Source: Eledone cirrhosa (taxonomy: Eukaryota). From it: 64,000 nucleotides of DNA. The stretch spans positions 88,722,001-88,786,000 of the forward strand of contig OZ024744.1 in the NCBI GenBank assembly GCA_964016885.1, read 5' to 3'. A program made the translations under genes and the position numbers. Of the stretch, positions 5,440-35,938 are shown piece after piece. Numbering within the stretch: position 1 is the first letter of the stretch; every line of letters starts with the position of its first letter. The notes under the pieces were generated by a model that saw only the letters and a program-made list of their open reading frames with translations, was not told the origin of the DNA and did no database searches.

Positions 5440-7480
5440 ATTCTTTCTTTGCCCGAACATTTTCCCTGCTCATACCTTTTTCAGGTTATTTATTTGTATA
5501 TTTTATACTCCTGCACTATGGTGCTGATTGTATTTATGCCATTGGGTTGAGGTTTTAATATCTTTACTTTTCTCAGGTAGACTCTCCTTATTTTGTTTTT
5601 CATCAGTATGTGTCGTCAATCAATCAGATCTTTTTGGTTGGCAAATTCATCCAGTCACATTTATTGTCTTTACCTTTCTTAATCACAAGGATTCCATATT
5701 TGAAAACACCAAGCTCCATTTTTATGACATTACTAAATACTCTGTGAGACGACAAACTATTCCAGTTCAGTTCACCTTCATTCTTGTGATATATATTCAG
5801 GTGAACAGCAAATAGTTAATACATTTCTGCTCTTTTCCTAAATTATATCTGAATTTTGTCTTTCTTAATTCAAACGAAAGTAGGGTAAGATCAATGGCAA
5901 AAAATAGAGGTAGTAAGCTATCACCTTGGAAAATCTCCCAATCTATTTTGGCTTCTCTTGTTAGTTATGTTTTCTACCACGTCACGCTTAGCTTTATCAG
6001 TTCAGTAAAGTTTTTTGTCACTCTGAACATTTTGAATGTTATCAAAATCTAAGGGTGTGGTAACGTCTCATATGCCTTCTTTTAATTAATCCACTCTATT
6101 GCTAACCCAGGTTTTCTTCTTTTGCAGTTCCAGATTATCAACTGTAATTTTGTTGCTTGTGAATTCCTGCGATACATTTTCTTTTCGTTAGGATGTATAT
6201 TTTGGTCTTCTAGGTGAGCATAGATACATTCTACAAACATATTAACAGGTTTTATAGTAAAGTGAGATAAAATATTCATCTGTGGTTTGATACATCGACT
6301 CCTATCTTCTTTTCTTTCATGATTGGGTTTGATCGGCGTTTAGTTATCAATTTGAGATACAATCGTTCAAACATTTGATATGTTTGCTAGTAATTGCCTC
6401 AGAGTTATAACATTCTTCAGCCAGAACCCTTGCAGGTCATCTAGTCCTGGTTAGTTCCAATTAGATAGTTTTACAGCTTATTCCGCAATGATATCCAGAA
6501 TCATTATTATATCATTATTATATCATTATTATATCATTATTATATCATTATTATATCATTATTATATCATTATTATGGCAGTATCAGTAAATTGTCGGAC
6601 GCCATGCTTTGCAACCTAGAGTTACGGCCCTTTACGGTCTGAGTTCGAATACCGCCGAGGTTAACTTTCCCTTTCATCCTTACGAGGTCGATAAAATAAA
6701 GTACCAGTCACGCACTAGGGTCGATTTAATCGACCCCCCCCCCCCCAACCAAATTGCAGGCCTGTGCCTATATAAAAAAAAACCATTATTATATCATTAT
6801 TATATCGTTATTATATCATTATTATGGCAGTATCAGAAAAGTGTCGGACGCCATGCTTTGCAACCTAGAGTTACGGCCCTTTACAGTCTGAGTTCAAATC
6901 CCGCCGAGGTTAACTTTGCCTTTCATCCTTACGGGGTCGATAAAATAAAGTACCAGTAATTCACTCGTGTAATTGCTGGCCTTGTGCCAAAAGTAGAAAC
7001 AATTATTATATCAACCTGCTGTTTTGCTTGCCTCAGTTATTTTCCTACCTTGCCTATATACTTTACTTCCTTCTTCGTTGTGGTTAACTTTCTTGCTTTA
7101 TATATCATTCTAAAACTCTTTTCTTTTCTCAATGTCTGATACTTCATTGTTGTATCGTTCTGCTTCTTCCAGTTTCTCTTCTGACTGTTCTGTTGGAACT
7201 GTTCCATTATACTCTTGTACAGTTTTATCTCAGATTTCTATGTTGTCATTTTTTTATTCAATTCTTCAGGTATAACATTTCTTTCGTTGGTGAAAGAAAC
7301 TGTAGTTGGCTCACTGCTTGGCTTAAACTTTTTATGCTGTTCTCTATTTGTCTTTGACTGTTTTCGGTTTTCCTGCATTGTAGCTATCATCTTTGGCTGC
7401 AACCTCATTGTATATGTTATATACCTACATTAGAGTAATTAGTGATGTAGGTCCTATAAAATGGTTGAACTATTCTGGTT
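5440..7480 (-). pseudogene. Highly decayed R4/Dong-like RLE-LINE RT fragment, interrupted by two SINEs
   Basis: Minus strand retains IFQGDSL (~5917-5937) and a PGLD..GFWLK-like motif (~6415-6450); many stops. Confidence 0.6.
6577..7010 (+). mobile_element. Two tandem SINE family 1 copies (6577-6785, 6825-7010) flanked by (ATCATTATTAT)n
   Basis: Both contain ggcagtatc...gagttc(g/a)aat...tttcatccttacg.ggtcgataaaataaagtaccag. Confidence 0.85.
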
Positions 7481-7744: not shown

Positions 7745-9312
7745 TATTTTCTTTCATTATTGTTTCTGAGATATATGCAGAGTGTCTTCCTGACACCTAG
7801 GGCAAATAAATTCCCCGTGTGCATTGCTAAGTCAGTTAATACAGCACATTGATTATAATTATTAAAAAAACAGCAGTATACATATATACACATGTGCATA
7901 TGCATATATAAATACAAGGAGGGATATCAATCTTACAGAGATAGTGCTCTTCTCAATACGTGTGCAGTACCTGTCAAAACAATTGTTTGCGCCTCGTGCA
8001 GAGAGGGTAAACCAGGAATCATTCGCAGATATTGTTCTGTTCCTTTCTTGATCATTCCCAGCCCTCCCACAATCACTGGTATTGTTACGGCCTTGAGGTG
8101 CCACATTTTCTCAATTTCAATAAGCAGATCTTTACATTTTCGTAGCTTGTCAAATTCTTTTGTCGCGATATTGTGATCACATAGGATGCTCATATCTATG
8201 AACAAACAGACCTTATTATGTTGATCTTTTACAATGATGTCAGGTCTATTTGCTTTTATGTTCCTGTCAGTATGTACAGGAAAGTCCCAGAGAATTTTTA
8301 CTTTTTCTCCTTCAGTTACAGCCTCAGGGTGATGATTGTACCATTTGTCTTCAGCTTTGATTTTGTAATGCCGACATATTACCCAGTGTAGATGTTGGCC
8401 AACTCTGTCATGTCTATATTTGTATTCTACTGGTGCTAAAACTTTACATCCAGAGACTAAGTGATCCACTGTTTCAACCTCAGCATTGCAGAATCGGCAC
8501 TTTGGGTTTATTCCGTTTCTCATCACATTGGTCTGGTAATTACGAGTCAATAAGCCTTGATCTTGGGCAGCTAAGATGAAGCCTTCACTCTCCACCTTTT
8601 AGGCCTGAGCTACGTAGCCACTGATGGGTGTGCTTTTGGTCAACTTCAGCTTGTTTGCTACTGGCCACATATTTGCCATGCAGAGGTTTCTGCTCCAAAT
8701 TTGATGCTAATTGTCCTTGCCCTTTTGCTTTTGCCAGTGATTTTATGTGCCTAGCAGCAGCAGTTGCAACAGTTTCTTTAGTCTGTCCAGCCTGGGTATC
8801 AAGCATGAGATCAGTAGCATATTTTTTGCTCTCCTTCAAGATAGAATGAAGATTCTTACTTCTCTCATGCTTTTCAACAAGTTTCAGCATACAGTCGTTA
8901 GTTGTTTCAAGGTATTTGGCCAGTCCAATGATGGTGGTCTTGTAAGCAAGTTTAAATTGGATCAGGCCACGGCCTCCTTGAGTTCTAGGAAGGTAAAGAC
9001 GATCCACATCTGATTTTGGGTGGTGCATCCTATTACAGGTCAGTAGCTTACGGACTTTTGTGTCGATTCTTTTGATTTCACTCATATTCCGGTTCAACAC
9101 ACCGAAGCTATAAGTGACAACTGGGACTGTCAAGGAATTTATGGCTAGCACCTTGTTACGAGCATTTAGTTCTGATCTCAGAACTGCACGTACTCACCTG
9201 TAACATTCATTCCTTATCCTCTCTTTCATACTTGCATGATGTATGGCAGAGCCCTCATTAATCCCTAAGTATTTATAGGTTTGTTCCTGCTCGAGTTCCT
9301 TTATGATTGTTT
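7745..9312 (-). mobile_element. 5'-truncated R4/Dong-like RLE non-LTR retrotransposon (frameshifted)
   Basis: ORFs 8585-9151 and 7933-8595: RLYLPRTQGGRGL, CRFC-x-ETVDHLVSGC zinc knuckle, RHD, NRPDII, K..K..DL restriction-like endonuclease; flanked by (ATT)n. Confidence 0.9.
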
Positions 9313-9552
9313 CTTCTTCTTCTTATTATTATTATTGAATGCCATGGTTGACGGAGGCTCGGCTCTGTAAGGTATAGTAATTTTTAACCGTTAAAACAAT
9401 TGTAAATTGTTTAAAACTTGAACCAAATTGTTGATAAAGACACCCTCCTCCTCGTGAGAGGGGTCTTTCTGTCCGTTATTTGGCCCTTCGGGGTTAAATA
9501 ACCAGTTATTGGGGTTTTGTACCCAAAATTTCATTTTAAACAAAAAAACAAC

Positions 9553-11967
9553 ATGGCTACGAAAAAGAAATTTCATACGTCACTCCCACTCATTCCGTCT
9601 TCTTCCTCAATCATCACTACAGCAGAGAGAAGATTGTCTCTCTCCCTCCCTTCTTTAAATGTGTCTCTCTCCCTCCCTTCTCTTTCGCAAGCGACGAAAG
9701 AAAAGAAAAGTCTCGTGCAAAGCGTGCAAGGTTTCTCCACGACGACGACGACAGCGACGAAACAGGTGTGCGGGAAATACGAAAACCCAGTTCATTCGTC
9801 TGACGTCAGGAATAATAGCAGTAGCAGCCGTAATAACAACAGCAACAGTGACAATGAAAACAACAGTAGCAGCCGCAACAGCATCACCAGCAACATAAAC
9901 AACAACAGCATTAGCAGCAGCAACACCAACAACAACCACAGCAACAGCGGCGGAGGCAGTAGTCGTAGTACCTGCAGCAACAACAAAAGTACCAGCAGCT
10001 CTGACGACAACAACAACAGCAGAGAAAAACCAATCTCATTTGCAGGTATTGCGAAAAACTTGGAAACAATCCTCATAACAAATGAGGAATTAGAGGAAGC
10101 GAAGAAGATGGTGACAAAGAACGGACACCGAGCAATCTGCAAGGCTGCGGAAAAGTTTTTCGAGACCCAAGAGCACTGTACGGTCACGTACCGTACAGTA
10201 AGTACAAAATCCCGTAGGGTGGAAAGAGCCACAGAAGCCCAAATACAAAAAGCCTTGGGGTCTGTGTGGCAGCGGAAAACGCACATCACCCGAGGCAAAA
10301 AATATGCCACCGTAGACGTACTTTTTGCCACACCCCAGGAGGCAAAGGCCCAATCAGTAGTGACCCTAAGGAGCGAGGAAATGGTGTTGGTGCCCTCCTA
10401 CTGCGGGCAAAAAATTGTGAGGGTCAAACTGACCCACGTCCCCCCCCCCCCCCCCCCCGGAATGACCCCTTCTTGGCTGGCCGCGTCTGTCCTCGTCGGA
10501 ATCGAGGACAAAACAACTGTACTGCAAGTACAGAAAAAAGTAAGAGAAGATTGGGTCGGCTCCTCCATTGAGATGCTAATCCAAACCAACCAGGAGTGCA
10601 TCGAAGCTATCCCGGATGTGATAGACTTCGATAACGGCACTCAACTGCCCATAAGTGTTGAGGGCAAACGCCCGAAATGCTTTCGCTGTGGATCGAAGAC
10701 TCACCTCAGGGCCTTCTGCAACGAGAAGACCCTGAGAAAGGAGAAAACCCCCCTCCTTCCGAATCCGGCTCCACGGCTACCAGCAACAGGACAAGCGGCA
10801 ACCAGGAACGATAGGTCCGTGGCACCCATACCCACGCCACGGAAATCAAAAACAGCAGCAGCAGTGGAAATATTAACAACAACAACAGCAATACCAAATG
10901 CAGCTGCAACAGAGACTCCAGTGCAAACATCACCAACAACAACAAGTGAAAGAGTGGAGCTGGTACCCCTCCCCGACCTCACAGAATCAGACATGGAGTG
11001 TGAGGTGGGAGAGGGATGGCAAAAGGTCGCAAGAAGGCACAAACGCAGAAGCAGCGCATCGTCGCCTTTGAAAAGGGAGGAAAGAAATGAGAAAAGGGTA
11101 AAGTCTACTGCAAAGAGACCCACAGCAGCAACAACACCAACACCATCACCACCCACACTAGCGCCACCATCACCACCGGCGACAACCCCACCGCCAACAA
11201 CACCTTCAACACCACCACCACAAGCACCAACATCGCAAACACAACAACAAAACACACACACCCAGCAACAACGACAAGAAAATAGCAGAACCACACCCCA
11301 CCCCCAGAAAAACAAATGCACGGCAATAAATACACACAACAAGAAACTAATGACTTACATAATTGAACACACAGACATTTCACAACAGGACTACATAATA
11401 CCAGCACCAATCAAAACGCCAACTAACATAAGACTGCTAAAAATAGCACAGAAACAATACACAAATATTAAAACGAAATTCCCCAACGCAGTTGGTGATT
11501 TCAGGGACCTAGGAGGAACCATCAATCGAAGAGTATACTCAGACATTCTCTTAGAAGAGCCGACGACCAGCCGAAGGGACGATTCAACGGTCCCTTCACC
11601 AGACGATCAAGTGAAAAGGGTGGAGAAACTATCCCTCCTCTACCAAAAGTACGGTAAGTGGTCTTTCCCATCTTTTCCACTCTATTTTAAACATGACCTC
11701 ACTCAGAATAGGCAGCATAAATGCGCGTGGCTTGGGGTCGTCATGGAAGCAGGGTCACCTGCTCAACGACCTCAGGTCACTAAACATAGATGTAGTGGCC
11801 ATCAGCGAGACCAGAATCTCCGAAGCACGGGCCTTCGCACCGATCTTCGGCGGCTACGATGTGTACGCATCTCCCAGCCGTCCTGGATCCGGTGGAGGAG
11901 TTGCTGTACTTTTTCGGAGAGGTTTGGATCTCGCCATACGGGCCATCTTCCTGGACCCAGAGGGTAA
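9553..11967 (+). CDS. Tx1 ORF1 nucleic-acid-binding protein; out of frame near its end in this copy (homologous stop at 11655-11657)
   Basis: ATG MATKKKF; CFRCGSKTHLRAFC CCHC knuckle; N/S and P/T low-complexity tracts; copy 3 ends ..PKVR*. Confidence 0.8.
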   Translation: MATKKKFHTSLPLIPSSSSIITTAERRLSLSLPSLNVSLSLPSLSQATKEKKSLVQSVQGFSTTTTTATKQVCGKYENPVHSSDVRNNSSSSRNNNSNSDNENNSSSRNSITSNINNNSISSSNTNNNHSNSGGGSSRSTCSNNKSTSSSDDNNNSREKPISFAGIAKNLETILITNEELEEAKKMVTKNGHRAICKAAEKFFETQEHCTVTYRTVSTKSRRVERATEAQIQKALGSVWQRKTHITRGKKYATVDVLFATPQEAKAQSVVTLRSEEMVLVPSYCGQKIVRVKLTHVPPPPPPGMTPSWLAASVLVGIEDKTTVLQVQKKVREDWVGSSIEMLIQTNQECIEAIPDVIDFDNGTQLPISVEGKRPKCFRCGSKTHLRAFCNEKTLRKEKTPLLPNPAPRLPATGQAATRNDRSVAPIPTPRKSKTAAAVEILTTTTAIPNAAATETPVQTSPTTTSERVELVPLPDLTESDMECEVGEGWQKVARRHKRRSSASSPLKREERNEKRVKSTAKRPTAATTPTPSPPTLAPPSPPATTPPPTTPSTPPPQAPTSQTQQQNTHTQQQRQENSRTTPHPQKNKCTAINTHNKKLMTYIIEHTDISQQDYIIPAPIKTPTNIRLLKIAQKQYTNIKTKFPNAVGDFRDLGGTINRRVYSDILLEEPTTSRRDDSTVPSPDDQVKRVEKLSLLYQKYGKWSFPSFPLYFKHDLTQNRQHKCAWLGVVMEAGSPAQRPQVTKHRCSGHQRDQNLRSTGLRTDLRRLRCVRISQPSWIRWRSCCTFSERFGSRHTGHLPGPRG

Positions 11968-14900
11968 GCTGGTGGTGCTGGACGTGACCAGCGGAGACGG
12001 GCAAGCTTTCAGGCTAGTGGCCGTCTATGCCCCGACAGGAGCAGGGCGGCCTGATTTCTTCCGGCGTCTGGAGACCTTTCTTGGAACGTCGCGCTCTTTA
12101 GTGTTAGTGGGCGACTGGAACGGGATCTTAGATGCACGCTGGGACTGTGTGGGATTAGCGGATAGGGGTGGAGGGTGCAAGAGCCTCACCAACCTGCTCA
12201 GGCGTTTTGAACTGTCTGACAGGTACCGATTGGATTTCCCGAATGTGCCAATGTGGACTTGGACAAACCGCATAGGGTCATCCAGATCATATCTAGATAG
12301 AGTATTTTGTAGGGAAATAGATAGGTCTAGCATAGGCTGTCCACAATTCAAGATAGTCAGCTACACGGACCACAAATTCGTGACCTGTGTGCTTGACTTA
12401 GATAGGCTTCATAGACGAGGACCCGGCTACTGGAAGCTAAACGCGTCCTTACCAGCGCGCAAGGCCTACAGAGACCGGATTAGCGAACTAGTTAAGCGGG
12501 CGTTGACGGGGGCCATCGTCAACAACAAGTGGTGGTTTGCTCTGAAAAGAGCGATTAGAATAGAATCGATTAGGTTTAGTAAGGCTTTAGCAATAGAGAA
12601 AAATAGAGCAGAGGGAGAACTAGTTAAAAAATTAGACGAGGCGCTTAGCAAAGGCATTGCGACCGACGTGCTTGCGGCGAAATTGGCCCTTGACCAATTC
12701 TTCAATGCAAAGCACGAAGGCTGCGTTGTCAGAGCTAGGGTGCGTGCTCTCAGACACGAGGGGACGAAAGCCGTTCAATGGGCCCGAGTGGCGGAGGCGC
12801 GTCGTGGCAACAAAGCCACGATCCGGTCTTTGGTGGACCACGACGGGCGCATGCTACTCGATCCCGGGCAAATGTGTGAAGCTTTTCAGCGACACTTCGC
12901 TCAGCTGTTCGGGGGCAGCGGGGGGCCGGGTAGAGGGATGGACTTTAGTGTCTACCTCGACGGACTGCCGCGGCTCTCGGCCACTGAGGCGAAGTGTTGC
13001 GAAAAGCCGATAACAGCCGCTGAAGTAAGGGAGGCAATGACTGGCTGCACAAGGGGTAAATCGCCTGGTTTGGATGGTCTGCCCTATGAACTTTACGTAC
13101 AGGTGCCAGACTTGTTCGGAGGCCTCTTGGCGGACGTCTACTGCAACTGGCAACAGAACGGGAGAATTCCCAGTTCTGTGAGCCGAGGAGCGGTGGCACT
13201 GCTGAGAAAGGATCCGAACAAGGGGGATAACATAGACAATTTCCGGCCCATAACTCTGCTAAACACAGAGTTTAAGATTTTGGCCAAGGTGCTAGCAAAG
13301 AGGTTGGCGCTTGTCGTTGGTGGTCTGGTGGGAGAGGCGCAGACATGCGCCATTCCCGACAGATCCATCCACGACAACCTCCACCTCATGCGATACATCG
13401 TAGAGAGGGTAGCTAGGGAACCTGGCACGGGTGGGTCCTTGATCAATTTAGATCAGTCGAAAGCTTTCGATAGGGTCGACCATCGTTACCTAGCGGCAGT
13501 CCTGAGGGCGGCTGGCTTTGGGCCCGTCTTCAGAGGCTGGATCGCTGCCATGCACAGCGACATCTGCTCTGTGGTGAGAGTGAACGGTCACCTGTCGGAA
13601 CCGTTCAACATCATGCGCTCGGTCCGCCAAGGATGTCCCCTCTCGTCCCTCTTGTACGTATTGACTCTCGAGCCATTACTGCACAAACTGGAGACGTTGA
13701 GGGGAGTCCCGCGCGAACTAGGATGCGGAAGATCAGTGTCAGCATATGCGGACGATGTCACCGTAGTGGTGTCGAGCGCCAAACACATCGAGGCGATCGG
13801 CACTACACTAAGAGAATACGAAGCGGTGACAGGAGCAATGATCAACCAGGAAAAGTCAGTGGGCCTGCAGCTCGGCACCTGGAGAGGCAGGTCCATGCCG
13901 TCCAACAGCGTCGTCGGACGCTGGACGGACGGACCGGTTAAATTGCTAGGGGTCTGGTTCGGTCCGGACCTCCAGACGGACAAAAACTGGGACGAGGTGA
14001 CGAGCAGGGTGGCTTCTCTCACCCAGAAATGGGCGGAGAGGAAGCTATCCCTGAAAGGTCGAGCGGAGGTGGCTAACGCGTACATCGCGTCCGTCATCTG
14101 CTACCGTCTGACCGTCGTACCTTGTCCTAAGCCTCGCCTGACTGCGCTGGAGCGTTTGCTCTTTCGCTTTTTGTGGAAGGGACGCGCTCCGATGGTCAGG
14201 CGGTCCATCTGTTGTCAACACCCGCTACGTGGAGGGCTGGGCATGCCGTGGCTGATGATGCGCAGGCACGCGCTCAGGCTACGACATCTCCACCTCTTCC
14301 TCGACGGTGATCAGGTGTGGTCGCCGTTTGCTAGGCGCGTGTTTCCCCAGCCCGTTTCCTTGACGGAGCTGCAGTCCTGGGTCAAGCGAAGACCGAGAGG
14401 GAGCGCCTGGAGACTGGAATGTCTTCAGGCGCTCACAGCCCTCGACCAATCGGGCAATGTGATCGGTGGAAACTCCACCTCGGCGTTCTATAGAGGATTA
14501 GTGGAGGGGAAGAGCGATGACGTACTTGGGGAAACTCTAGGCGTCGACGAAAATCAACTAGCCAATCTCTTCGGAAGAACTTTCGGGCCAGGGCCTATGG
14601 ACAACTTCCAGAAATCTCTGGCCTGGCAGTGCTACCGAGGAGCCTTGCCAGTTCGGGATAAACTCTACAGGCATGGAGGTGCCGTCAGCCGGGCATGTCC
14701 GAGATGCGCGCAGGGCGACGAAACCGTCCTGCACGCACTCGTCCAGTGTCCGAAAATTGCTGACTTGTGGGTTTATGTCGAACACCTGCTGTCGCGTTTA
14801 GGACGGATCCGGCTATCATCTGAGTCCATCGTGAGGATTGCCCCGCCCTCCTCCTTTAGCCGGGAAGGGCAGGAAGTTTTTATCTGTCTGGTGGCCATGG

Positions 14901-15112
14901 CGAAAGAGATAGTATGGTGGACACGTTTGAAAGGGCTGAAGACGAGCACTTACCTCTTCGGTGATGCTCTGATTGACTTTTTCAAATTTCATTTGAAAAG
15001 GAAAATCAGAGTAGAGAAGGAAGTGCTCTCTTCCCAGCATTTTGTTGAAAGATGGGTGAGAGAAGCAAGAATGGCCCGAGTGAATGGGCCGACTCTGAGT
15101 ATATATCTGTAA
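11693..15112 (+). CDS. Tx1 ORF2: APE endonuclease + reverse transcriptase + C-terminal zinc finger, 1139 aa
   Basis: SINARG, ISET, GDWN, YLDR, TDH; SPGLDG, FRPITLLN, LDQSKAFDRV, QGCPLS, YADD; CPRC..ETVLHALVQC. Confidence 0.97.
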   Translation: MTSLRIGSINARGLGSSWKQGHLLNDLRSLNIDVVAISETRISEARAFAPIFGGYDVYASPSRPGSGGGVAVLFRRGLDLAIRAIFLDPEGKLVVLDVTSGDGQAFRLVAVYAPTGAGRPDFFRRLETFLGTSRSLVLVGDWNGILDARWDCVGLADRGGGCKSLTNLLRRFELSDRYRLDFPNVPMWTWTNRIGSSRSYLDRVFCREIDRSSIGCPQFKIVSYTDHKFVTCVLDLDRLHRRGPGYWKLNASLPARKAYRDRISELVKRALTGAIVNNKWWFALKRAIRIESIRFSKALAIEKNRAEGELVKKLDEALSKGIATDVLAAKLALDQFFNAKHEGCVVRARVRALRHEGTKAVQWARVAEARRGNKATIRSLVDHDGRMLLDPGQMCEAFQRHFAQLFGGSGGPGRGMDFSVYLDGLPRLSATEAKCCEKPITAAEVREAMTGCTRGKSPGLDGLPYELYVQVPDLFGGLLADVYCNWQQNGRIPSSVSRGAVALLRKDPNKGDNIDNFRPITLLNTEFKILAKVLAKRLALVVGGLVGEAQTCAIPDRSIHDNLHLMRYIVERVAREPGTGGSLINLDQSKAFDRVDHRYLAAVLRAAGFGPVFRGWIAAMHSDICSVVRVNGHLSEPFNIMRSVRQGCPLSSLLYVLTLEPLLHKLETLRGVPRELGCGRSVSAYADDVTVVVSSAKHIEAIGTTLREYEAVTGAMINQEKSVGLQLGTWRGRSMPSNSVVGRWTDGPVKLLGVWFGPDLQTDKNWDEVTSRVASLTQKWAERKLSLKGRAEVANAYIASVICYRLTVVPCPKPRLTALERLLFRFLWKGRAPMVRRSICCQHPLRGGLGMPWLMMRRHALRLRHLHLFLDGDQVWSPFARRVFPQPVSLTELQSWVKRRPRGSAWRLECLQALTALDQSGNVIGGNSTSAFYRGLVEGKSDDVLGETLGVDENQLANLFGRTFGPGPMDNFQKSLAWQCYRGALPVRDKLYRHGGAVSRACPRCAQGDETVLHALVQCPKIADLWVYVEHLLSRLGRIRLSSESIVRIAPPSSFSREGQEVFICLVAMAKEIVWWTRLKGLKTSTYLFGDALIDFFKFHLKRKIRVEKEVLSSQHFVERWVREARMARVNGPTLSIYL

Positions 15113-15426
15113 ACTAAAGGTGGAAAACTGGGAGAGGGCACTTGCCTTGGTGGTCAGGGTCATTGTGGCTTTTTACTGGGCTTTCTCCACAAATGTCCCT
15201 CCGAAGTCTCCCCCCTATTGGGGAATTTTTCATTGTTATTTTCATTGTTATTTTTGTTACATCCTCTGTTTTTGTTTTTTTACACGCAGAAATGCCCATT
15301 TGTACCGTCCTGCATTGTCCTGCACTGTCCTTAATGTCTACTTTATGTAAACCCTTGTGGTTAATAAAGAAATCATTATTATTATTATTATCATTATTAT
15401 TATTATTATTATTACTATTATTATTA

Positions 15427-15826
15427 GGGCGGTGGATTGGCAGTATCGGTAGAGGGTCGGACGCCATGCTTTCCAGCATAGTTACGTCCCTTTATGATCT
15501 GAGTTCAAATCCCGCCGAGGTTGACTTTGCCTTTCATCCTTACGGGGTCGATAAAATAAAGTACCAGTAATGCACTGGGTAATTGCTGGCCTTGTGCTTA
15601 AAGTAGAAACAATTATAAAGGGCGGTGGATTGGCAGTATCGGTAGAGGGTCGGACGCCATGCTTTCCAGCATAGTTACGTCCCTTTACGATCTGAGTTCA
15701 AATCCCGCCGAGGTTGACTTTGCCTTTCATCCTTACGGGGTCGATAAAATAAAGTACCAATAATGCACTGGGTAATTGCTGGTCTTGTGCCTAAAGTAGA
15801 AACAATTATTATTATTATTATTATTG
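15427..15826 (+). mobile_element. Two near-identical tandem SINE family 1 copies (15427-15616, 15619-15826)
   Basis: gggcggtggattggcagtatcgg...gagttcaaatcccgcc...aaagtagaaacaatt; inserted in the Tx1 (ATT)n tail. Confidence 0.9.
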
Positions 15827-15827
15827 T

Positions 15828-18800
15828 TCTTTGAATCTCAGTCATTGATGTTTTTTAACTGGAAGGTTTGTTGAAATGGACTAATTTTCTTTAACCATCC
15901 TTGGAAACTCTTTGATATAGTACCTAGTGCGCCTATGACAATGGGACGATCTTGATGTCATGGCAATTCCAAATCCTTTTTAACTCCCACTTTAAGTCCT
16001 GGTATCTTCTCCTTTTCTTGCACTCTCGTGTCGAATAGGCAGGCTACATCTACAATCAGGCACGATATTTTTTCCTTGTTCAAAACCACCAGGTCAGGCC
16101 TATTGTGTTCCAGTTTCTTGTCCGTCTGTATCCTAAAATCCCACAGCACCTTCACCTGATCGTTTTCTATCACCGACTCTGGCTTATGCTCATACCACTT
16201 CTCAGAATGTGGTAAGTTGTTTACTTTGCATAGGTGCCAGTGGATCACCCTGCCCATCACATCATGTCTCCAGATTTTATAGTGAGTCTGGGCTAGGTGT
16301 TTACACTCGGATACAATGTGAGCCACAGTCTTCTCTCTCTCTCTCCACAGATCCTACACAGTGAACTAGTCTCCTCCTTGTAAATATGGTGTTTCACCCA
16401 CTTCGTTCTGAGGGACTGCCCTTGCGCAGCCATTAGCATTCCTTCTGTAGCCTTTTAAAGGTCTCCTCTTTTTAACCAGTTCCATGTCTATGGATATCTA
16501 AATTCCGTTTTCTTAAAGAAGGTGCTATGAAGGGATTTTTAATGAAGGTTGCTCTTCCTCTTTGTTGTTATTTCCTCCTTGGACATCCCCTGGTCTATTG
16601 TCCTCTCCTTCAGTTCAATTTGAGCATTGGCTCCCTACTGTCAGCCACATATTTGTGAAGGTTGTTTTTCTCCATCTGAACACAGTCCTCTATGCTGATA
16701 AGACCTCTTCCACCTTCAGATCTCCTTAAGTAGAGTCTACCGACATCACTCCTCTTGTGGAACATGTTGTAGATAGTCAATAGCTTCCTAGTCTTCCTAT
16801 CCATTTCTTTTTGTTCGGCAACATTCCATTTCCGAATTCCCGCACTCTACCTAATAATAGACACAGCTCGGGAATTTACTGCACTTATGGCATTCCTACT
16901 ATTTAGATGTGATTTTAATATGTTCCTTACTCTCCTTATGTATTCAAATCTTATCAATTCCTTCATTTTTTTGTTCTTGATGTCATCTGCCTCCAGAACA
17001 CCTAAATATTTGTATCCCTCTTCAGTGCCATTTTCCTTTATCATCTCACCTGTTGGTACCTGGATTCCGTTGCTTCTGCTCAATTTAACCCTCTTCATCA
17101 CTAGGACTCCAAACTTATTAACACCAAATTCCATACATTGCTGAAAATACGGACAGTGTCAACAAGTACATCCAACTCCTTCTCACTCTTCCCAAAGAGT
17201 TTAAGATCGTCCATGAAGAGAAGGTGGTTGATGGTAAGCTCTCCTCTTCCCAACTTGTATCCTGCTCTCATTTTTCGCCACATGAAGGACAGGGGTATCA
17301 CGGCAAGGACAAACAACAAAGGAGACAAACTATCTCCCTGGAAGATACCTCTCTTGATCTTCACGCCTCCCAAGGATTCTCCACCTTATGTTTCCCAGGA
17401 CTTCATACTTTTGCTTAATAGCTCTCTGATATTATCTGCCACCTTGAAGATCTCTAGACTTTTGGTTATCCAAGAATGAGGTACCATGTCGAATGCCTTT
17501 TTGTCTTCTTCCTCCCAAACCACCAGTATTTGGATGTCAGCCAGGTCTTTGCTGCTGGGCCAGGGAGCACTTGCTGGGTGAGAGTCTTTCACATGACGTT
17601 CCAGTCTCCTTTTCACCGTTATTCGAACTTAGGTAGAGTCTATGGACATCACTCCCCTTGTGGAACATGTTGTAGATAGTCAATAGCTTCCTAGTCTTCC
17701 TATCCATTTCTTTTTGTTCAGCAACAATCCATCTCAGAATTCCCGCACTGTACCTAATAATAGACACAGCTCGGGAATTTACTGCACTTATGGCATTCCT
17801 ACTATTTAGATGTAATTTTAATACGCTCCTTATTCTCCGAATGTATTCGGATCTTATCAATTCCTTCATTTTTTTGTTCTTGATGTTATCAGCCTCCAGA
17901 ACACCTAAATATTTGTATCCTTCTTCAGTGTCAATTTCCTTTATCATCTCACCTGTTGTTACCTGGATTCCGTTGCTTTTGCTCAATTTACACCTCTTCA
18001 TCACGAGGACTCCACACTTACTAATACCAAATTGCAAACATATATCATTGCTGAAAATACGGACAGTGTCAACAAGTACATCCAACTTCTTTTCACTCTT
18101 CCCAAAGAGTTTAAGATCGTCCATGAAGAGGAGGTGGTTGATGGTAAGCTCTCCTCTTCCCAACTTGTATCCTGCTCTCACTTTTCGCAGTATAATGGTC
18201 AGGGGCATCAGGGCAAGGACAAACAACAGAGGGGACAGACTATCTTCCTGGAAGATACCTCTCTTGATCTTCACGCCTCCCAAGGATTCTCCAGCCGATG
18301 TTAACTCTGTTTTCCAGGACTTCATACTTTTGCTCAACATCTGTCTGATGTTATCTGCCACCTTGAAGATCTCTAGGCTTTTGGTGATCCAAGAATGAGG
18401 CACCATGTCAAATGCCTTTTTGTAGTCTATCCATCCCATGGCAAGACCAGTGTGTCTCCTCTTGCAATTCCTCATTACCATCTTATCAATAAGTAACCGG
18501 TCCTTTGTACCACGGGACTTCTTTCGGCATCCTTTCTGTTCGTACGGTAACAAGTTGGTTGTGTGGAGGTGATGGTAGATATCCTCAGACACAATGCTTG
18601 TCAACAGTTTCCACATTACGGACAGACATGTGATAGGTTTATCCTCAATGGCCGTATCTTTGTTCCAGGTATTATTTATTTCAGCATTCAGATCATTGTC
18701 TGCTTCGGATGGTTCCCCCGTTCTCTCAACCTCTTCACCTTCATTTCCCACTGGCTCGTTTGCCTGGCATACTCCACTCTCCATTTCCAACCTAATCTCT

Positions 18801-19230
18801 CTGCTCAGTTCCTCCAGTTCCAGCTCGCTTATCCACCCAATAGTTCTTATTACCCGAGCCTGCCCGGCCAATGTTTGTTCATCTAATTTAAATAGACCAA
18901 TCTCGTTCCAGATGTTATACATCCGTTTCCTATAGCCTTTTTCCTTGGGGTTACTCTTCAGGTAACATTGCATAACAGTTCTATTCAATTCTTTCGTCCA
19001 GTTGGTTCTGGTCCCTTTTCTTCTTCCTCTTCCTCAAACACCAGCAGTATTTGGATGACAGCCAGGTCCCTGCTGCTAGGCCAGGGAGCACCTGTTGGGT
19101 GAGAATCTGTCACATGACATTCCAGTCTCCACTTCACCGTTATTCGAACTGTTTAGGTTCGACATTTAAGCACTCATATCGAGGATTGGTGAATGTATGG
19201 TTACAAAACTACCTGTGATTTCATCACCCC
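15828..19230 (-). mobile_element. Rearranged, decayed R4/Dong-like RLE LINE with duplicated RT
   Basis: WIDYKKAFDMVPH, IFQ(G/E)DSLSP, HLLFMDDLKL each present twice; RHD and HNRPDLVV endonuclease at 15958-16326; N-terminus MQCYLKSNP..GYRKRM. Confidence 0.9.
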
Positions 19231-20724: not shown

Positions 20725-21670
<946 letters not shown>

Positions 21671-24600
21671 GGCGACCTACGTAGTAAATCGTATCATCGT
21701 GAGCTCCGCAAAGGTTTGTTATTTTCAGTTGTTTAAAATTGCCATTTATGGAAAAAATTTATTGTTAACTGTATATAAGCGCACATACATCGGTTTCCGA
21801 AAAGGACACAAAAAAAGATTGGAGCCTTGTGCCCAAAATTTAAAATTTTATGATTATCAAAAAATTTCTTTTAAAAAATCATGGCTGATTCACCTCTGCA
21901 CCAAGCAGCTGAGAGCCTTCCTCACTAACTAACATCTCACACCGACGCCACCATTGTAAATATTACTACGTTTGCCAACACTAAAAATTTAAGCAGTAGC
22001 AATATTTTAAATTTGTCTCAGGCAGACATTCATTTCCCGCCATTACCAATGACTGCAGGTGTTAAAGCCTCCACCACCACCACCACCACCGCGACAACCA
22101 CCACTCGCACCATCACCGCGACAACAGAAACAAAAGAACAAAATAAATTAACTCGTGATGTCGAAATAAATTCAACCTAAATGAACTCTTCCACACCGAA
22201 CACCACTGACGCCACCACCATCACAACTGAAACTAAAATTAATAATAAGAAAAATAACGATAACAACAACAGCAACAATGACATTAAGAAAACCACCCTG
22301 AGTTTTGCCAGAGTAGCAAAACAGTGCGAAGCATTTCAGGTAACTCAGGAGGAATTAGAAGATGCCAAAAAAATGGTAAAGAAAGATGGGTACAGGGTCA
22401 GCCCCCCCCCCCCCCTCCACCTAATAAAATGGAGCATCGTCGCCTATGCACCGTGTCTTATTGCACAATTAATGTAAAATCGCGCCGAGTGGAACGGGCA
22501 TCCGAGTCCCAAATCCAAAAAGCTTTGGGACATGAGTGGGCAAGAAAAACCCACATCAGACGTAGGCAGAAGTATGGAACCGTGGACGTGTTCTTTGAAA
22601 CACCACAGGAGGCTAGAGAACACTCCATGGCCCCATTAAGAAGTGACGACTTCACACTCGTCCCAAGCTATTGTGGCCAGAGACTCGTAAAGATCAGGGT
22701 GACCCACGTCCCACCGGCCATCGAAATTCCCTGGCTAATAGCAGCTGTCCTCGCCGGCATCGAAGCCAACACCAAGATAATAGCAATAGCGAAAGAAAAG
22801 CAGGAGAACTGGTCCGGATCTGGGATTTAGCTCCTGATGCAAGCGGACCAAAAAAGCATTGAGGAGATACCAGAGGTAATAGACCTCACTGACGGCAGCC
22901 ACCTCACCGTAATTGTCGAGGGCAGAAGACCTAGGTGTGTCGTTTGTGGTGAAGGAACCCACCTAAGGGCTTTCTGCCCTCAGGCTAAAAGGTTGAGGTC
23001 ACATCTCCTACCCACCCCAGTGACTCAACCATCAACACCACCAGCAGCAGTAATGGCAGCAACAACTGTAGCAGCAACAACAGAAGCAACAATAACAGCA
23101 ACAACGCAGCAACAGTAGGAAAACCAATACCACCACCACCCAACGCTTCAGAACTAACGCCAGCGCCTACACCATCCACCACGCCACAACCAAAACTAAC
23201 GCCAGTGGAGGATTTTCCACTCCCCGGCCTATCACAACTGGAGACAGATAGTGACGACGAGGAGTGGGAAACGGTATCAGGAAAAAAGAAAAAAAGAAAC
23301 CAAAAAAGAAAAAATTCTCTTCCTTCCCCCTCCAAAAACAAAATACAGAGGGAAACAAATAAACTATGAAACAAAAAAGTTAGGACAGACATGCCACCAT
23401 CCACACCAGCATCACCAACCGCATCACCCCAAACAGCAACACCATCACCATCATTAACCCCAACACCACCATCACCTACACCACAAAAGTCACCAAAATG
23501 CGAAACAGAAACAAATCCACAACAAACGCAAACAAAACAAAACAACCAAAACGATACACACTACACAGCATTAAATTTGAAGAACAACCAATTATTACAC
23601 TACATGCAACACAACACCAGCATCACAGAAAAAGACTACACAACAACCCAAAAATTCACACCACCTCCACACATACAAATCACTCGCATCACACAGAAAA
23701 CGTACATGACAATAAAACAAAAACTCCCCAAAGACATCGGAGACTTCCGACAAGCACTCTCCGGAAAGATTTATAAGGACATCCTTCCTGAGGAGGCCAG
23801 AAGCAGTGAAAAGGGTGGAGAAACCGTCCTTCCTCTACGAGAAGTAAGGTAAGTGGTCTTTCCAAATCTTTCCACTCCATTTCAACATGACCTCACTCAG
23901 AATAGGCAGCATAAATGCGCGTGGCTTGGGGTCGTCATGGAAGCAGAGCCACCTGCTCAACGACCTCAGGTCACTAAACATAGATGTAGTGGCCATCAGC
24001 GAGACCAGAATCTCCGAAGCACAGGCCTTCGCACCGATCTTCGGCGGCTACGATGTGCACGCATCTCCCAGCCGTCCGAGATCGGGAGGAGGAGTTGTGC
24101 TTTTTCGGAGAGTTTTGGATTTCGCCATACGGCCATCTTCCTGGACCCAGATGGTAAGTTGGTGGTGCTAGACGTGACCAGCGGAGACGAGCAAGCTTTC
24201 AGGCTAGTGGCCGTCTATGCCCCGACAGGAGCAGAGCGGCCTGATTTCTTCCGGCGTCTGGAGACCTTTCTTGGAACGTCCCGCTCTTTAGTGTTAGCGG
24301 GCGACTGGAACGGGATCTTACATGCACACTGGGACTGTGTGGGATTAGGGGATAGGGGAGGAGGGTGGAAGAGCCTCACCAACCTGCTCAGGCGTTTTGA
24401 ACTGTCTGACAGGTACCGATTGGATTTCCCGAATGTGCCAATGTGGACTTGGACAAATCGCATAGGGTCATCCAGATCATATCTAGTTAGAGTATTTTGT
24501 AGCGAAATAGATAGGTCTAGCATAGGCTGTCCACAATTCAAGAAAATCAGCTACACGGACTACAAATTCGTGATCTGTGTGCTTGACTTGGATAGGCTTC

Positions 24601-27289: not shown

Positions 27290-27976
27290 TGCATTTATCT
27301 TGCTTTATGTTTATACGAGTTATCACCAAGTCACAACCAGTGACCTCAAGAGACAACAAGGTCCGCCATGTTCAAGAAAGAACATACATATTCACACATG
27401 CATCCTTAGTGTTTAGACTTGTGATGTACTTATATTGACAGGATCTTCCTTAGTATATGGGCAGTTCCCATTAGTACTATCATTTGTATTTCTCCTATAC
27501 GCGGGTTTCCTGGGATTTGCGATAAGTAGTCGTTAGACCCCTTATGTATCATTCCCAGAGCGCCTACAACCACTGGTATTGTTTTAGTTCTCAATTTCCA
27601 CATTTTTCCAATTTCTATCTCCAGGTCCTTATACTTGCTCAATTTTTCAAATGTTTTTATAGATACATTCTTGTCTATTGGAACAGACATATCAATTAGC
27701 AGGCATACCCTCATTTGAAAGTCCTTCAATATTATATCAGGTCTATTTGCATCTATTTTTCGGTCTGTTTGGATGCTAAAGTTCCACAAGATTGAGATGT
27801 GATCTTTTTCAAGTATGGGAGGTGGTTGATGCTCCCACCAATTCTTTTGATGGGGCAGGTCAAAATGCTTACACATTATCCAATGTATGTATTGTGCAGC
27901 TCTGTCATGCCTGTTTAGGTATTCGGTTGGAGCTATAAGACTGCACATTGAAATTATATGGTCAATGGTCTCTGGT
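27290..27976 (-). mobile_element. 3' fragment of an R4/Dong-like RLE LINE
   Basis: ORF 27430-27948: RHD, NRPDII, EKLSKYKDL, IPVVVGALG; (ATT)n on both sides. Confidence 0.88.
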
Positions 27977-28208
27977 TGTTATTATTATTATTGAATGCCA
28001 TGGTTGACGGAGGCTCGGCTCTGTAAGGTATAGTAATTTTTAACCGTTAAAACAATTGTAAATTGTTTAAAACTTGAACCAAATTGTTGATAAAGTCACC
28101 CCCCTCCTCGTGAGAGGGGTCTTTCTGTCCGTTATTTGGCCCTTCGGGGTTAAATAACCAGTTATTGGGGTTTTGTACCCAAAATTTCATTTTAAACAAA
28201 AAAACAAC

Positions 28209-30309
28209 ATGGCTACGAAAAAGAAATTTCATACGTCACTCCCACTCATTCCGTCTTCTTCTTCCTCAATCATCACTACAGCAGAGAGAAGATTGTCTCT
28301 CTCCCTCCCTTCTTTAAATGTGTCTCTCTCCCTCCCTTCTCTTTCGCAAGTGACGAAAGAAAAGAAAAGTCTCGTGCAAAGCGTGCAAGGTTTCTCCACG
28401 ACGACGACGACAGCGACGAAACAGGTGTGCGGGAAATACGAAAACCCAGTTCATTTGTCTGACGTCAGGAATAATAGCAGTAGCAGCCGTAATAACAACA
28501 GCAACAGTGACAATGAAAACAACAGTAGCAGCCGCAACAGCATCACCAGCAGCATAAACAACAACAGCATTAGCAGCAGCAACACCAACAACAACCACAG
28601 CAACAGCGGCGGAGGCAGTAGTCGTAGTACCTGCAGCAACAACAAAAGTACCAGCAGCTCTGACGACAACAACAACAGCAGAGAAAAACCAATCTCATTT
28701 GCAGGTATTGCGAAAAACTTGGAAACAATCCTCATAACAAATGAGGAATTAGAGGAAGCGAAGAAGATGGTGACAAAGAACGGACACCGAGCAATCTGCA
28801 AGGCAGTGGAAAAATGTTTCGAAACCCAAGAGCACTGTACGGTCACGTACCGTACAGTGAGTACAAAATCCCGTAGGGTGGAAAGAGCCATAGAGGCCCA
28901 AATACAAAAAGCCTTGGGGTCTGTGTGGCAGCGGAAAACGCACATCACCCGAGGCAAAAAATATGCCACCGTAGACGTACTTTTTGCCACACCCCAGGAG
29001 GCAAAGGCCCAATCAGTAGTGACCCTAAGGAGCGAGGAAATGGTGTTGGTGCCCTCCTACTGCGGGCAAAAAATTGTGAGGGTCAAACTGACCCACGTCC
29101 CCCCCCCCCCCCGGAATGACCCCTTCTTGGCTGGCCGCGTCTGTCCTCGTCGGAATCGAGGACAAAACAACTGTACTGCAAGTACAGAAAAAAGTAAGAG
29201 AAGATAGGGTCGGCTCCTCCATTGAGATGCTAATCCAAACCAACCAGGAGTGCATTGAAGCTATCCCGGATGTGATAGACTTCGATAACGGCACTCAACT
29301 GCCCATAAGTGTTGAAGGCAAACGCCCGAAATGCTTTCGCTGTGGATCGAAGACTCACCTCAGGGCCTTCTGCAACGAGAAGACCCTGAGAAAGGAGAAA
29401 ACCCCCCTCCTTCCGAATCCGGCTCCACGGCTACCCGCAACAGGACAAGCGGCAACCAGGAACGATAGGCCCGTGGCACCCATACCCACTCCACGGAAAT
29501 CAAAAACAGCAGCAGCAGTGGAAATATTAACAACAACAGCAATACCAAATGCAGCTGCAACAGAGACTCCAGTGCAAACATCAACAACAACAACAAGTGA
29601 AAGAGTGGAGCTGGTACCCCTCCCCGACCTCACAGAATCAGACATGGAGTGTGAGGTGGGAGAGGGATGGCAAAAGGTCGTAAGAAGGCACAAACGCAGA
29701 AGCAGCGCATCGTCGCCTTTGAAAAGGGAGGAAAGAAATGAGAAAAGGGTAAAGTCCACTGCAAAGAGACCCACAGCAGCAACAACACCAACACCATCAC
29801 CACCCACACTAGCACCACCATCACCACCGGCGACAACCCCACCGCCAACAACACCTTCAACACCACCACCACAAGCACCAACGTCGCAAACACAACAACA
29901 AAACACACACACCCAGCAACAACGACAAGAAAATAGCAGAACCACACCCCACCCCCAGAAAAACAAATGCACGGCAATAAATACACACAACAAGAAACTA
30001 ATGACTTACATAATTGAACACACAGACATTTCACAACAGGACTACATAATACCAGCACCAATCAAAACGCCAACTAACATAAGACTGCTAAAAATAGCAC
30101 AGAAACAATACACAAACATTAAAACGAAATTCCCCAACGCAGTTGGTGATTTCAGGGACCTAGGAGGAACCATCAATCGAAGAGTATATTCAGACATTCT
30201 CTTAGAAGAGCCGACGACCAGCCGAAGGGACGATTCAACGGTCCCTTCACCAGACGATCAAGTGAAAAGGGATGTAAAAACCATCCCTCCTCTACCAAAA
30301 GTACGGTAA
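28209..30309 (+). CDS. Tx1 ORF1 with a frameshift inside a poly-C run (~29099-29112), possibly a sequencing error
   Basis: ORFs 28173-29207 and 29116-30309 join across the homopolymer, which is in frame in copy 1. Confidence 0.75.
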
Positions 30310-30344
30310 GTGGTCTTTCCCATCTTTTCCACTCTATTTTAAAC

Positions 30345-33300: not shown

Positions 33301-33764
33301 CAGTTCGGGATAAACTCTACAGGCATGGAGGTGCCGTCAGCCGGGCATGTCCGAGATGCGCGCAGGGCGACGAAACCGTCCTGCACGCACTCGTCCAGTG
33401 TCCGAAAATTGCTGACTTGTGGGTTTATGTCGAACACCTGCTGTCGCGTTTAGGACGGATCCAGCTATCATCTGAGTCTATCGTGAGGATTGCCCCGCCC
33501 TCCTCCTTTAGCCGGGAAGGGCAGGCAGTTTTTATCTGTCTGGTGGCCATGGCGAAAGAGATAGTATGGTGGACACGTTTGAAAGGGCTGAAGACGAGCA
33601 CTTACCTCTTCGGTGATGCTCTGATTGACTTTTTCAAATTTCATTTGAAAAGGAAAATCAGAGTAGAGAAGGAAGTGCTCTCTTCCCAGCATTTTGTTGA
33701 AAGATGGGTGAGAGAAGCAAGAATGGCCCGAGTGAATGGGCCGACTCTGAGTATATATCTGTAA
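30345..33764 (+). CDS. Tx1 ORF2 APE-RT, intact 1139 aa
   Basis: Same motifs as 11693-15112 with few substitutions. Confidence 0.97.
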   Translation: MTSLRIGSINARGLGSSWQQGHLLNDLRSLNIDVVAISETRISEARAFAPIFGGYDVYASPSRPGSGGGVAVLFRRGLDLVIRAIFLDPEGKLVVLDVTSGDGQAFRLVAVYAPTGAGRPDFFRRLETFLGTSRSLVLVGDWNGILDARWDCVGLADRGGGCKSLTNLLRRFELSDRYRLDFPNVPMWTWTNRIGSSRSYLDRVFCREIDRSSIGCPQFKIVSYTDHKFVICVLDLDRLHRRGPGYWKLNASLPARKAYRDRISELVKRALTGAIVNNKWWFALKRAIRLESIRFSKALAIEKNRAEGELVRKLDEALSKGIATDVLAAKLALDQFFNAKHEGCVVRARVRALRHEGTKAVQWARVAGARRGNKATIRSLVDHDGRMLLDPGQMCEAFQRHFAQLFGGSGGPGRGMDFSVYLDGLPRLSATEAKCCEKPITAAEVREAMTGCTRGKSPGLDGLPYELYVQMPDLFGGLLADVYCNWQQNGRIPSSVSRGAVALLRKDPNKGDNIDNFRPITLLNTEFKILAKVLAKRLALVVGGLVGEAQTCAIPDRSIHDNLHLMRYIVERVAREPGTGGSLINLDQSKAFDRVDHRYLAAVLRAAGFGPVFRGWIAAMHSDICSVVRVNGHLSEPFNIMRSVRQGCPLSSLLYVLTLEPLLHKLETLRGVPRELGCGRSVSAYADDVTVVVSNAKHIEAIGTTLREYEAVTGAMINQEKSVGLQLGTWRGRSMPSNSVVGRWTDGPVKLLGVWFGPDLQTDKNWDEVTSRVASLTQKWAERKLSLKGRAEVANAYIASVICYRLTVVPCPKPRLTALERLLFRFLWKGRAPMVRRSICCQHPLRGGLGMPWLMMRRHALRLRHLHLFLDGDQVWSPFARRVFPQLVSLTELQSWVKRRPRGSAWRLECLQALTALDQSGNVIGGNSTSAFYRGLVEGKSDDVLGETLGVDENQLANLFGRTFGPGPMDNFQKSLAWQCYRGSLPVRDKLYRHGGAVSRACPRCAQGDETVLHALVQCPKIADLWVYVEHLLSRLGRIQLSSESIVRIAPPSSFSREGQAVFICLVAMAKEIVWWTRLKGLKTSTYLFGDALIDFFKFHLKRKIRVEKEVLSSQHFVERWVREARMARVNGPTLSIYL

Positions 33765-34026
33765 ACTAAAGGTGGAAAACTGGGAGAGGGCACTTGCCTT
33801 GGTGGTCAGGGTCATTGTGGCTTTTTACTGGGCTTTCTCCACAAATGTCCCTCCGAAGTCTCCCCCCTATTGGGGAATTTTTTTCATTGTTATTTTCATT
33901 GTTATTTTTGTTACATCCTCTGTTTTTGTTTTTTTACACGCAGAAATGCCCATTTGTACCGTCCTGCATTGTCCTGCACTGTCCTTAATGTCTACTTTAT
34001 GTAAACCCTTGTGGTTAATAAAGAAA

Positions 34027-34080
<54 letters not shown>

Positions 34081-34081
<1 letters not shown>

Positions 34082-35772: not shown

Positions 35773-35938
35773 GGTCGGACGCCATGCTTTGACGCATAGA
35801 GTTACGGCCCTTGCCATTCTGAGCTCAAATCCAGCCGAGGTTAACTTTGCCTTTCATCCTTACGGGGTCGATAAAATAAAGTACCAGTAATGTACTGGGC
35901 AATTGGGGGCCTTGTGCCAAAAGTAGAAACAATTATTA
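35773..35938 (+). mobile_element. 5'-truncated SINE family 1
   Basis: ggtcggacgccatgcttt...aaagtagaaacaattatt. Confidence 0.85.

Follow-up and report, generated by a model that had tools for sequence, protein, structure and literature searches.

The window analysed here is a 64,000-nucleotide (nt) stretch of the Eledone cirrhosa genome (assembly GCA_964016885.1, contig OZ024744.1, positions 88,722,001 to 88,786,000), and it holds several copies of a long interspersed element (LINE) with two open reading frames (ORFs) separated by a spacer. Coordinates are window positions on the forward (+) strand unless stated otherwise. Copy 1 (9337..15374) is full length, belongs to the subfamily that we call A and is flanked by ATT repeats. 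Its ORF1 (9553..11657) has no Pfam family. Its ORF2 (11693..15112, 1139 amino acids) encodes an N-terminal APE endonuclease (PF03372), a reverse transcriptase (RT, PF00078) and a C-terminal zinc domain (zf-RVT, PF13966). A second stop codon follows 2 bases past the ORF2 stop (15115..15117), in a frame where a stop is kept across subfamilies, and the 3' untranslated region (UTR) carries AATAAA (15363..15368) with an (ATT)n tail 6 nt on. The separate ORF1, the lack of long terminal repeats (LTRs), the 5' truncation of copies and the simple-repeat tail fit an L1/Tx1-type non-LTR retrotransposon. The Tx1 label comes from an earlier sequence-only reading of the window and from literature on octopus repeats; the close database matches include no named Tx1 reference.

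Further copies lie in the window, truncated relatives among them. Copy 3 (27996-34034) is 98.7% identical to copy 1. Copy 2 is decayed, belongs to subfamily A2 and has a different ORF1 (donor and spacer at 23848..23886, partner from 27029). At 20725..21565 is a 5'-truncated copy of subfamily B1 whose UTR starts at 21287. This is a young family with very many members: every one of the 150 matches scored against the first 150 residues was 100% identical (31,290 candidates). Subfamily A copies stand head to tail with an array period near 6050-6090, and a young subfamily, probably D (D was confirmed only at other loci), forms head-to-tail arrays with a period near 5840 bp (G000:C1:423365098-423418069; G000:C4:157083597-157101577). 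The elements appear to prefer a repeat target, since 83 of 117 3' ends continue into ATTATTATT, that is (ATT)n, a tail that may partly be element-made; copies 1 and 3 also have ATT runs next to their 5' ends. Microsatellite-targeting L1-Tx1 elements are known (Kibi and Koshi, PMC4494074), and 13 recently active L1-Tx1 families have been described in Octopus vulgaris (PMC13282606). Our elements share with L1-Tx1 the two ORFs, the APE-RT-zinc ORF2, insertion into microsatellites and the head-to-tail arrays; they differ from Kibi and Koshi in their target, (ATT)n as opposed to (TC)n or (TTC)n.

The spacer of copy 1 can pair with the start of its own UTR, as the sequence-only reading had noticed, and both stretches were found where it had placed them (11653-11690 and 15110-15146). 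The two stretches give a duplex of -39.3 kcal/mol in RNAduplex (all helix energies in this study are model values). Dinucleotide shuffles of the same stretches averaged -17.8 with a standard deviation of 3.5 (z -6.1), and 0/2000 were as strong. Among all 60-nt windows of the element the UTR start was the spacer's top target (runner-up -31.7). The modelled core consists of 27 pairs, fewer than the roughly 30 of 37 that had been counted by eye, and joins a 5' strand at 11653..11683, comprising a donor helix followed by central and proximal helices, to 15118-15146. Outside the core, CUACCAA (11640-11646) pairs with 15147-15153, and pairing reaches outward to 11633 and 15159, so that the extension occupies 11633..11646 with its partner at 15147-15159 and the whole 3' strand occupies 15118..15159, including a donor-complementary word at 15139-15146. 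Three G-U pairs in the core and one in the CUACCAA extension account for the four wobbles that had been said to work on the sense RNA alone, and the antisense strand reaches only -28.2 kcal/mol. The strands lie ~3.4 kb apart and closely enclose ORF2. They do not do so to the base, as had been proposed, because the model leaves unpaired the inner 7-8 nt that adjoin the AUG and the ORF2 stop. A minimum-energy fold of the complete 3.8-kb RNA contains the helix. A search of Rfam over 9300-15500 returned four weak matches, every one far under the gathering cut-off.

The other copies bear unequally on the helix. Copy 3 has the same core (5' strand 30305..30335, 3' strand 33770..33798), and is no independent evidence because it is nearly identical to copy 1. 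Its ORF1 stop (30307-30309) is in frame; in copy 1 a 1-nt loss near 11620 has put the family stop (11655-11657) out of frame and left the ORF1 frame open to 11967. The spacing of copy 3 was found in 30/30 genomic loci compared. Copy 2, in which the pairing had been described as largely kept, retains the complementarity in a weaker form (-39.4 versus -52.3 kcal/mol in 63-nt windows).

We fetched copies of subfamilies B1, D, A2, E, F, G and H from the genome. ORF2 of B1 and of D is 75% identical to that of A, and F pieces are ~55-80% identical; over the seven subfamilies compared below, ORF2 identity goes down to ~60-75%. The ORF1/ORF2 junction and the ORF2-stop sequence were complementary in every subfamily tested. 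In 8/8 representatives the spacer's top target lay no more than 14 nt from the ORF2 stop (20-nt scan step) and the sense duplex was stronger than the antisense duplex; z ranged from -2.5 (B1) to -6.6. The full-length parent of the truncated B1 copy had been predicted to carry a different spacer complementary to its own, different UTR start. Nine of the 20 loci fetched in the search for it extend to the ORF2 start, and they bear the prediction out: the spacer differs and its top target is its own UTR start. The same held for the divergent subfamilies at large, in which spacers and UTR starts differ and each is matched to its own. The A spacer, for instance, gave -52.3 kcal/mol with its own UTR and -23.5 with that of B1. 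Across seven subfamilies the true spacer-UTR matching ranked first of 5040 permutations. When two outgroup families (described below) were added, the own 5' strand was best for 9/9 3' strands and the own 3' strand was best for 7/9 5' strands.

Compared by eye, the proximal helix has been rewritten between subfamilies, reading UUUUCCACU/GGUGGAAAA in A, CCGUUUCUCA/UGAGAAAUGG in E, CCGUUCCUCA/UGAGGAGUGG in G and GUUUUCCUCCUA/UAGGAGGAAAAC in H, and UUAGC/GCUAA in B1 versus UUCAU/GUGAA in D. Automated alignment recovered one double change each for A/E, A/G and E/G and none for B1/D, which were misaligned there; MAFFT misaligns low-complexity spacers. Of four words predicted for the H UTR before it was looked at, GGAGGAAAA was found letter for letter in 5 of 7 H-type UTRs, two others matched in part and the fourth did not. 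An A-type UTR was present in 8 of 20 H loci (L203, L207, L209, L210, L212, L214, L215, L216). Joined to the H-type 5' part, this UTR gives by eye a U.U mismatch in the proximal helix at a position that is U-A in H and A-U in A. Such a recombinant may represent an intermediate of compensatory change.

In three loci (L160, L164, L168) second ORF2 ends carry more divergent UTR starts, two of them with a donor-complementary word ~35 nt past the stop.

More distant comparisons came from tandem elements at ~40% identity on contigs filed under a bacterial bin. Many of these contigs consist of tandem LINE arrays (L218-L258), which points to contamination by animal (host) DNA. In the main outgroup family, ORF2 is ~16-20 codons longer, and the stretch equivalent to the UTR start pairs with the junction. 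All 10 distinct strand pairs formed the helix (-44.5 to -53.7 kcal/mol, z -3.4 to -5.0), sense beat antisense in 10/10, and one G-C to A-U double change was present. Here the purine-rich side is the 5' strand, so that the sides are swapped relative to the Eledone elements. In a second outgroup family (L218, one copy, 48% identical to the first), a scan without a shuffle control placed the best match between junction and ORF2 end at the equivalent position (-43.3 kcal/mol), and an overlapping TAATG stop-start lies within its helix. Farther out, 10 distant relatives (L255 and nine metagenome loci, 24-33% identity) had no helix at the stop (z -1.8 to +1.2); the ORF2 start was uncertain in several of them, one locus with short flanks was excluded, and the other 27 of the 37 metagenome loci were left out for want of a closed ORF of 950 codons. 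A search of IMG/VR found no relative.

The complementarity could in principle serve no purpose in RNA, reflecting either a chance match between a pyrimidine-rich spacer and a purine-rich UTR or an inverted repeat kept by conversion at the DNA level. CU-rich spacers do pair fairly well with foreign UTRs (the B1 spacer gives -42.6 with the A UTR versus -48.6 with its own), the z of B1 is low, and in the automated alignment A, E and G differ pairwise by just one double change, B1 and D by none. These explanations are nonetheless largely refuted, and we give them very little credence: shuffles that keep composition are beaten, the true matching is the best of 5040, the sense strand wins in the representatives and the outgroup alike, and the purine-rich 5' strand of the main outgroup does away with the argument from composition. 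Support is good for a sense-strand RNA helix under selection, and we consider it highly probable that selection acts at the level of RNA.

The 5' strand contains a motif that resembles a 5' splice donor. In copy 1, ACG|GTAAGT (11651..11659) overlaps the ORF1 stop and is fully paired in the helix. Every one of the seven subfamilies has an RG|GTRA motif at the end of ORF1, and so does the main outgroup family, where it lies 14 nt upstream of the AUG. It stands in phase 2 of ORF1 in A, A2 and H, in phase 1 in D, E and G, and in phase 0 in young B1; because it is kept in three phases, it is not simply a stop codon. In B1 and D it is the top-scoring GT of about 310-330, and elsewhere it is in the top 1-3%. 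The helix pairs the entire donor in A, E and G, and mostly its exon side in B1 and D.

We looked for acceptors at the other end of ORF2. After dropping 7 of 170 ORF2 ends that lacked a stop at the expected place, 163 were used. The ORF2 stop is TAG in 142 of them, so that the stop itself supplies an AG. Of 36 distinct UTR starts, 28 (126 of the 163 copies) have a second stop within two codons at offset 2, be it TAA, TAG or TGA; the other frames gave 0 and 1. Offset 2 is the frame of ORF1 after a phase-1 donor has been joined to the AG of the stop, and the second stop would thus end a spliced ORF1. In young B1, the main exception, the donor is in phase 0 and the stop, at codon 3, has offset 0. 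An ORF1 spliced from the donor into the stop-AG would terminate within two codons in 6 of 8 representatives, B1 among them. The lineages with a regenerated stop are related and perhaps amount to ~3 independent cases, and the TGA also lies inside the helix. A second candidate acceptor, a pyrimidine tract with CAG (15262..15289), is present in A, A2 and H only. Its CAG (15287-15289), ~180 nt into the UTR, is the only good UTR acceptor of A and A2; its use would add 20 codons to ORF1 and stop before the poly(A) signal.

Short donor-acceptor cassettes were also seen near both ends of ORF2. A 28-47 nt GT..AG cassette occurs in the spacers of B1, D, F and H and is absent from A, A2, E and G; as a micro-intron fusing ORF1 to ORF2 it was rejected as a general mechanism, being in frame (by hand) only in young B1 and F2. 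Directly past the ORF2 stop, outgroup copies (L219-L258) have a second donor (GTAAGT or GTGAGT), a pyrimidine tract and a YAG in a cassette of 34-40 nt. Both kinds of cassette may be micro-introns or landing pads for factors. An apparent avoidance of AG in the distal UTR was dropped: AG is depleted there, and GA equally so.

The sequence-only reading had offered three roles for the helix: controlling ORF2 initiation, masking the splice donor, and bringing new ORF2 protein (ORF2p) to its own 3' end. Masking of the donor has the most sequence support. The geometry is inhibitory because the start of the intron pairs with sequence just past a candidate acceptor, with the donor inside the helix; and since the helix cannot form before the end of ORF2 has been made, which is when the acceptor appears, a clamp in competition with the spliceosome is suggested. 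The donor would be free while ORF2 is being transcribed. Once the end of ORF2 emerges, the spliceosome and the 3' strand would compete for it. Splicing from the donor to the AG of the ORF2 TAG, or in A, A2 and H to the UTR CAG, would yield an ORF1-only mRNA, and zipping of the helix would displace U1 and leave a full-length RNA that makes ORF2p and gets copied. It would be the long range of the helix, as opposed to a local structure, that supplies the timing. We put the probability that the helix is such a clamp, which hides the conserved donor, blocks the splicing-out of ORF2 and sets the share of full-length RNA, at about one half. A fuller version may be just short of even: the reverse-transcriptase gene would be a regulated intron, a 3.4-kb clamp that keeps its position between hosts at ~40% protein identity, its letters rewritten, would act against U1 to set the ratio of ORF1-only to full-length RNA, and the same helix would then gate the ORF2 AUG in the cytoplasm.

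This logic has a precedent in the splicing of shGAG in the Arabidopsis Ty1/copia element EVD (PMC5580714). There too a conserved U1-type donor stands at the end of the structural gene, where it would govern how much structural protein is made relative to polymerase. In EVD splicing creates a stop just past the junction, as predicted here in 6 of 8 representatives with TAG ends, whereas A and A2 would reach a stop only after 20 codons through the UTR CAG. EVD differs in being an LTR element with a short intron followed by early termination; here the whole of ORF2 would be the intron, under the control of a 3.4-kb helix. Splicing was demonstrated in EVD and is predicted from genomic sequence here.

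Several observations weigh against the clamp. F2 and H regenerate no stop through the stop-AG, and the window's own A and A2 copies end ORF2 in TAA and so lack that AG. The UTR CAG is absent from D, E, F and the examined G copy. The pyrimidine tract before the stop-AG is middling, ranking 6-21 among 112-129 YAG sites. L218 has the helix and no donor at its junction. The folding models are likewise mixed: minimum-energy folds of the whole RNA include the helix in 6 of 8 elements, B1 and D favouring a local alternative. Relative to local folds most elements gain -12 to -37 kcal/mol from it, but A2, copy 2 and an H/A recombinant just -4 to -5. In copy 2 the helix, flanks included, loses to the local fold (net gain -4.6 kcal/mol). 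Modelled accessibility of the donor drops only modestly when the UTR is added, and rises in F and H. The subfamily counts are not independent, because the subfamilies share ancestry. Spliced genomic copies of A were not found either: an exact-pattern search of the genome gave 0 matches for the predicted junction and 0 for a degenerate, non-GTA continuation, a pattern that misses next bases fitting GT or a third-position A. The fetched loci, a set selected because its members contain ORF2, had no exon-end pattern that continued into a UTR. A look for RNA runs containing the element found none. Contigs of unrecorded kind showed no donor-to-UTR joint among 15 listed of 1073 and no loose end at the donor among 21 listed of 77, and are uninformative on splicing.

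One junction may nevertheless be a copied splice product. Subfamily A is a chimera, 90% like G-type ORF1 up to the G donor and then 94% like A2 (L086, L184, L077). Its founding junction (11610..11612) joins G-type ORF1, at the exact G-type donor, to the A2-type sequence that follows a CAG, with AG shared, and was possibly made by retrotransposition of a splice between tandem copies. A template switch also fits, and is allowed by the 2 nt of microhomology at the junction; this too counts against the clamp. Spliced human L1 RNAs (SpIREs, PMC5860796) can retrotranspose, and the A junction may be such a product. The available portions of that paper deal with L1 splice sites and describe no programmed switch that skips ORF2 and involves an RNA clamp.

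The absence of a donor from L218 and the burial of the AUG in both outgroups keep alive a second role, in which the helix would set how often ribosomes that end ORF1 restart at ORF2. ORF2 synthesis would then be tied to RNAs that hold the ORF2 end, and the donor would have another job or none. Adding the 3' strand lowers the modelled accessibility of the AUG from 0.9 to 0.0 in a main-outgroup copy (L223) and from 0.45 to 0.02 in L218. The helix is also more widespread than the donor (9/9 families versus 8/9). It spans the ORF1 stop region, and in A, B1, D and E it stops 7-12 nt short of the AUG. A competing local fold runs across the AUG in B1 and D. In the outgroups the 3' strand lies within the coding sequence of ORF2, where translating ribosomes would melt it. 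A TAATG stop-start like that in the L218 helix is used by SART1 (PMC5972666). SART1 coupling and human L1 reinitiation resemble our system in that the RNA is bicistronic and RNA structure near the junction affects ORF2; the SART1 structure lies just downstream of the stop-start, ORF2 sequences are invoked for L1, and pairing with the ORF2 end is not described in the available part of that paper. This translational role leaves the three-phase donor and the frame-specific second stop unexplained. Moreover, modelled AUG accessibility barely shifts in most families of this genome, and it is unchanged in outgroup copy L249, for which the 3' window used did not cover the whole partner. We think this role possible yet less likely than the splice clamp, with which it is compatible.

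Long-distance pairing of this kind has a precedent in the tombusvirus PRTE-DRTE interaction (PMC3234231), which joins the junction before the polymerase to the 3' region over about 3.5 kb and has been proposed to check for full-length RNA. The likeness to plant-virus elements that the sequence-only reading had drawn holds for the kilobase-scale junction-to-3' pairing with covariation. It fails for a fixed-frame fusion of ORF1 to ORF2 by readthrough or frameshifting, given that the ORF1 phase and the spacer length vary between subfamilies. Tombusviruses use the pairing for stop-codon readthrough in a cytoplasmic virus; here a helix of ~27-50 bp lies over a nuclear splice motif. Cis-preferential use of the RNA is one benefit proposed for the viral interaction, and our helix might likewise bring ORF2p to its own 3' end, or shape the particle for reverse transcription. 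Nothing specific speaks for this role. Whether or not the helix forms, ORF2p is released ~260 nt from the 3' end, which makes cis-preference by proximity unlikely, and from the 5'-truncated copies no more can be read than that copying begins at the 3' end. We rate the chance of such a role as slight in the extreme.

U1 might also act at the donor without splicing, protecting or retaining the nascent RNA until the helix evicts it once ORF2 is complete, thereby licensing 3' end formation and export. The donor is conserved and no single acceptor is; an unused 5' splice-site motif can block export (PMC4380460, PMC9074902), and U1 suppresses premature termination in EVD (PMC5580714). ORF2 offers little to protect, with no AATAAA or ATTAAA in A and 0-3 in the others, and the frame-specific second stop would have no explanation. 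We therefore consider this checkpoint improbable.

Literature on LINE helices, LINE splicing and octopus Tx1, covered by titles and the starts of abstracts and with most subscription papers and Repbase outside that coverage, described no such helix; the available portions of PMC4494074 and PMC13282606 mention neither a spacer/UTR helix nor splice signals for L1-Tx1. If the clamp is real, it would bear on how LINEs produce ORF1 protein in quantity and ORF2p sparingly, and on how their intron-less RNA stays intact. Long-range RNA control of the viral kind and subgenomic splicing of the copia kind would then reach to LINEs as well, and the swapping of ORF1 modules at the ORF1/ORF2 junction would be explained. 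The natural compensatory variants of the helix are ready-made mutants, and the splice model names exact RNA junctions.

The UTR contains one more structure, a small CCCC-TATT-GGGG hairpin (15212..15223), of which a CCCC-TATT/TATC-GGGG version was seen by eye in the UTR of all subfamilies; it is a candidate recognition site for ORF2p.

Other elements surround the Tx1 copies. At 34081-35766, inside the ATT tail of copy 3, the 5' end and ORF1 start of another type are joined at ~34849 to an A-like 3' part of ORF2. Pieces of another non-LTR element, interrupted by Tx1 copies, lie at 7933-9085, 15830-18973, 27430-27948 and 50379-52630, with an RT match at 17537-18970; from its C-terminal motif we take it to be Dong/R4-like. 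A Penelope-like element occupies 42384-45023 on the reverse (-) strand, with an RT match and a GIY-YIG match slightly under the cut-off. Finally, a unit of ~190 bp that resembles a short interspersed element is repeated in tandem within ATT tails at 15428-15825 and 35775-35935.

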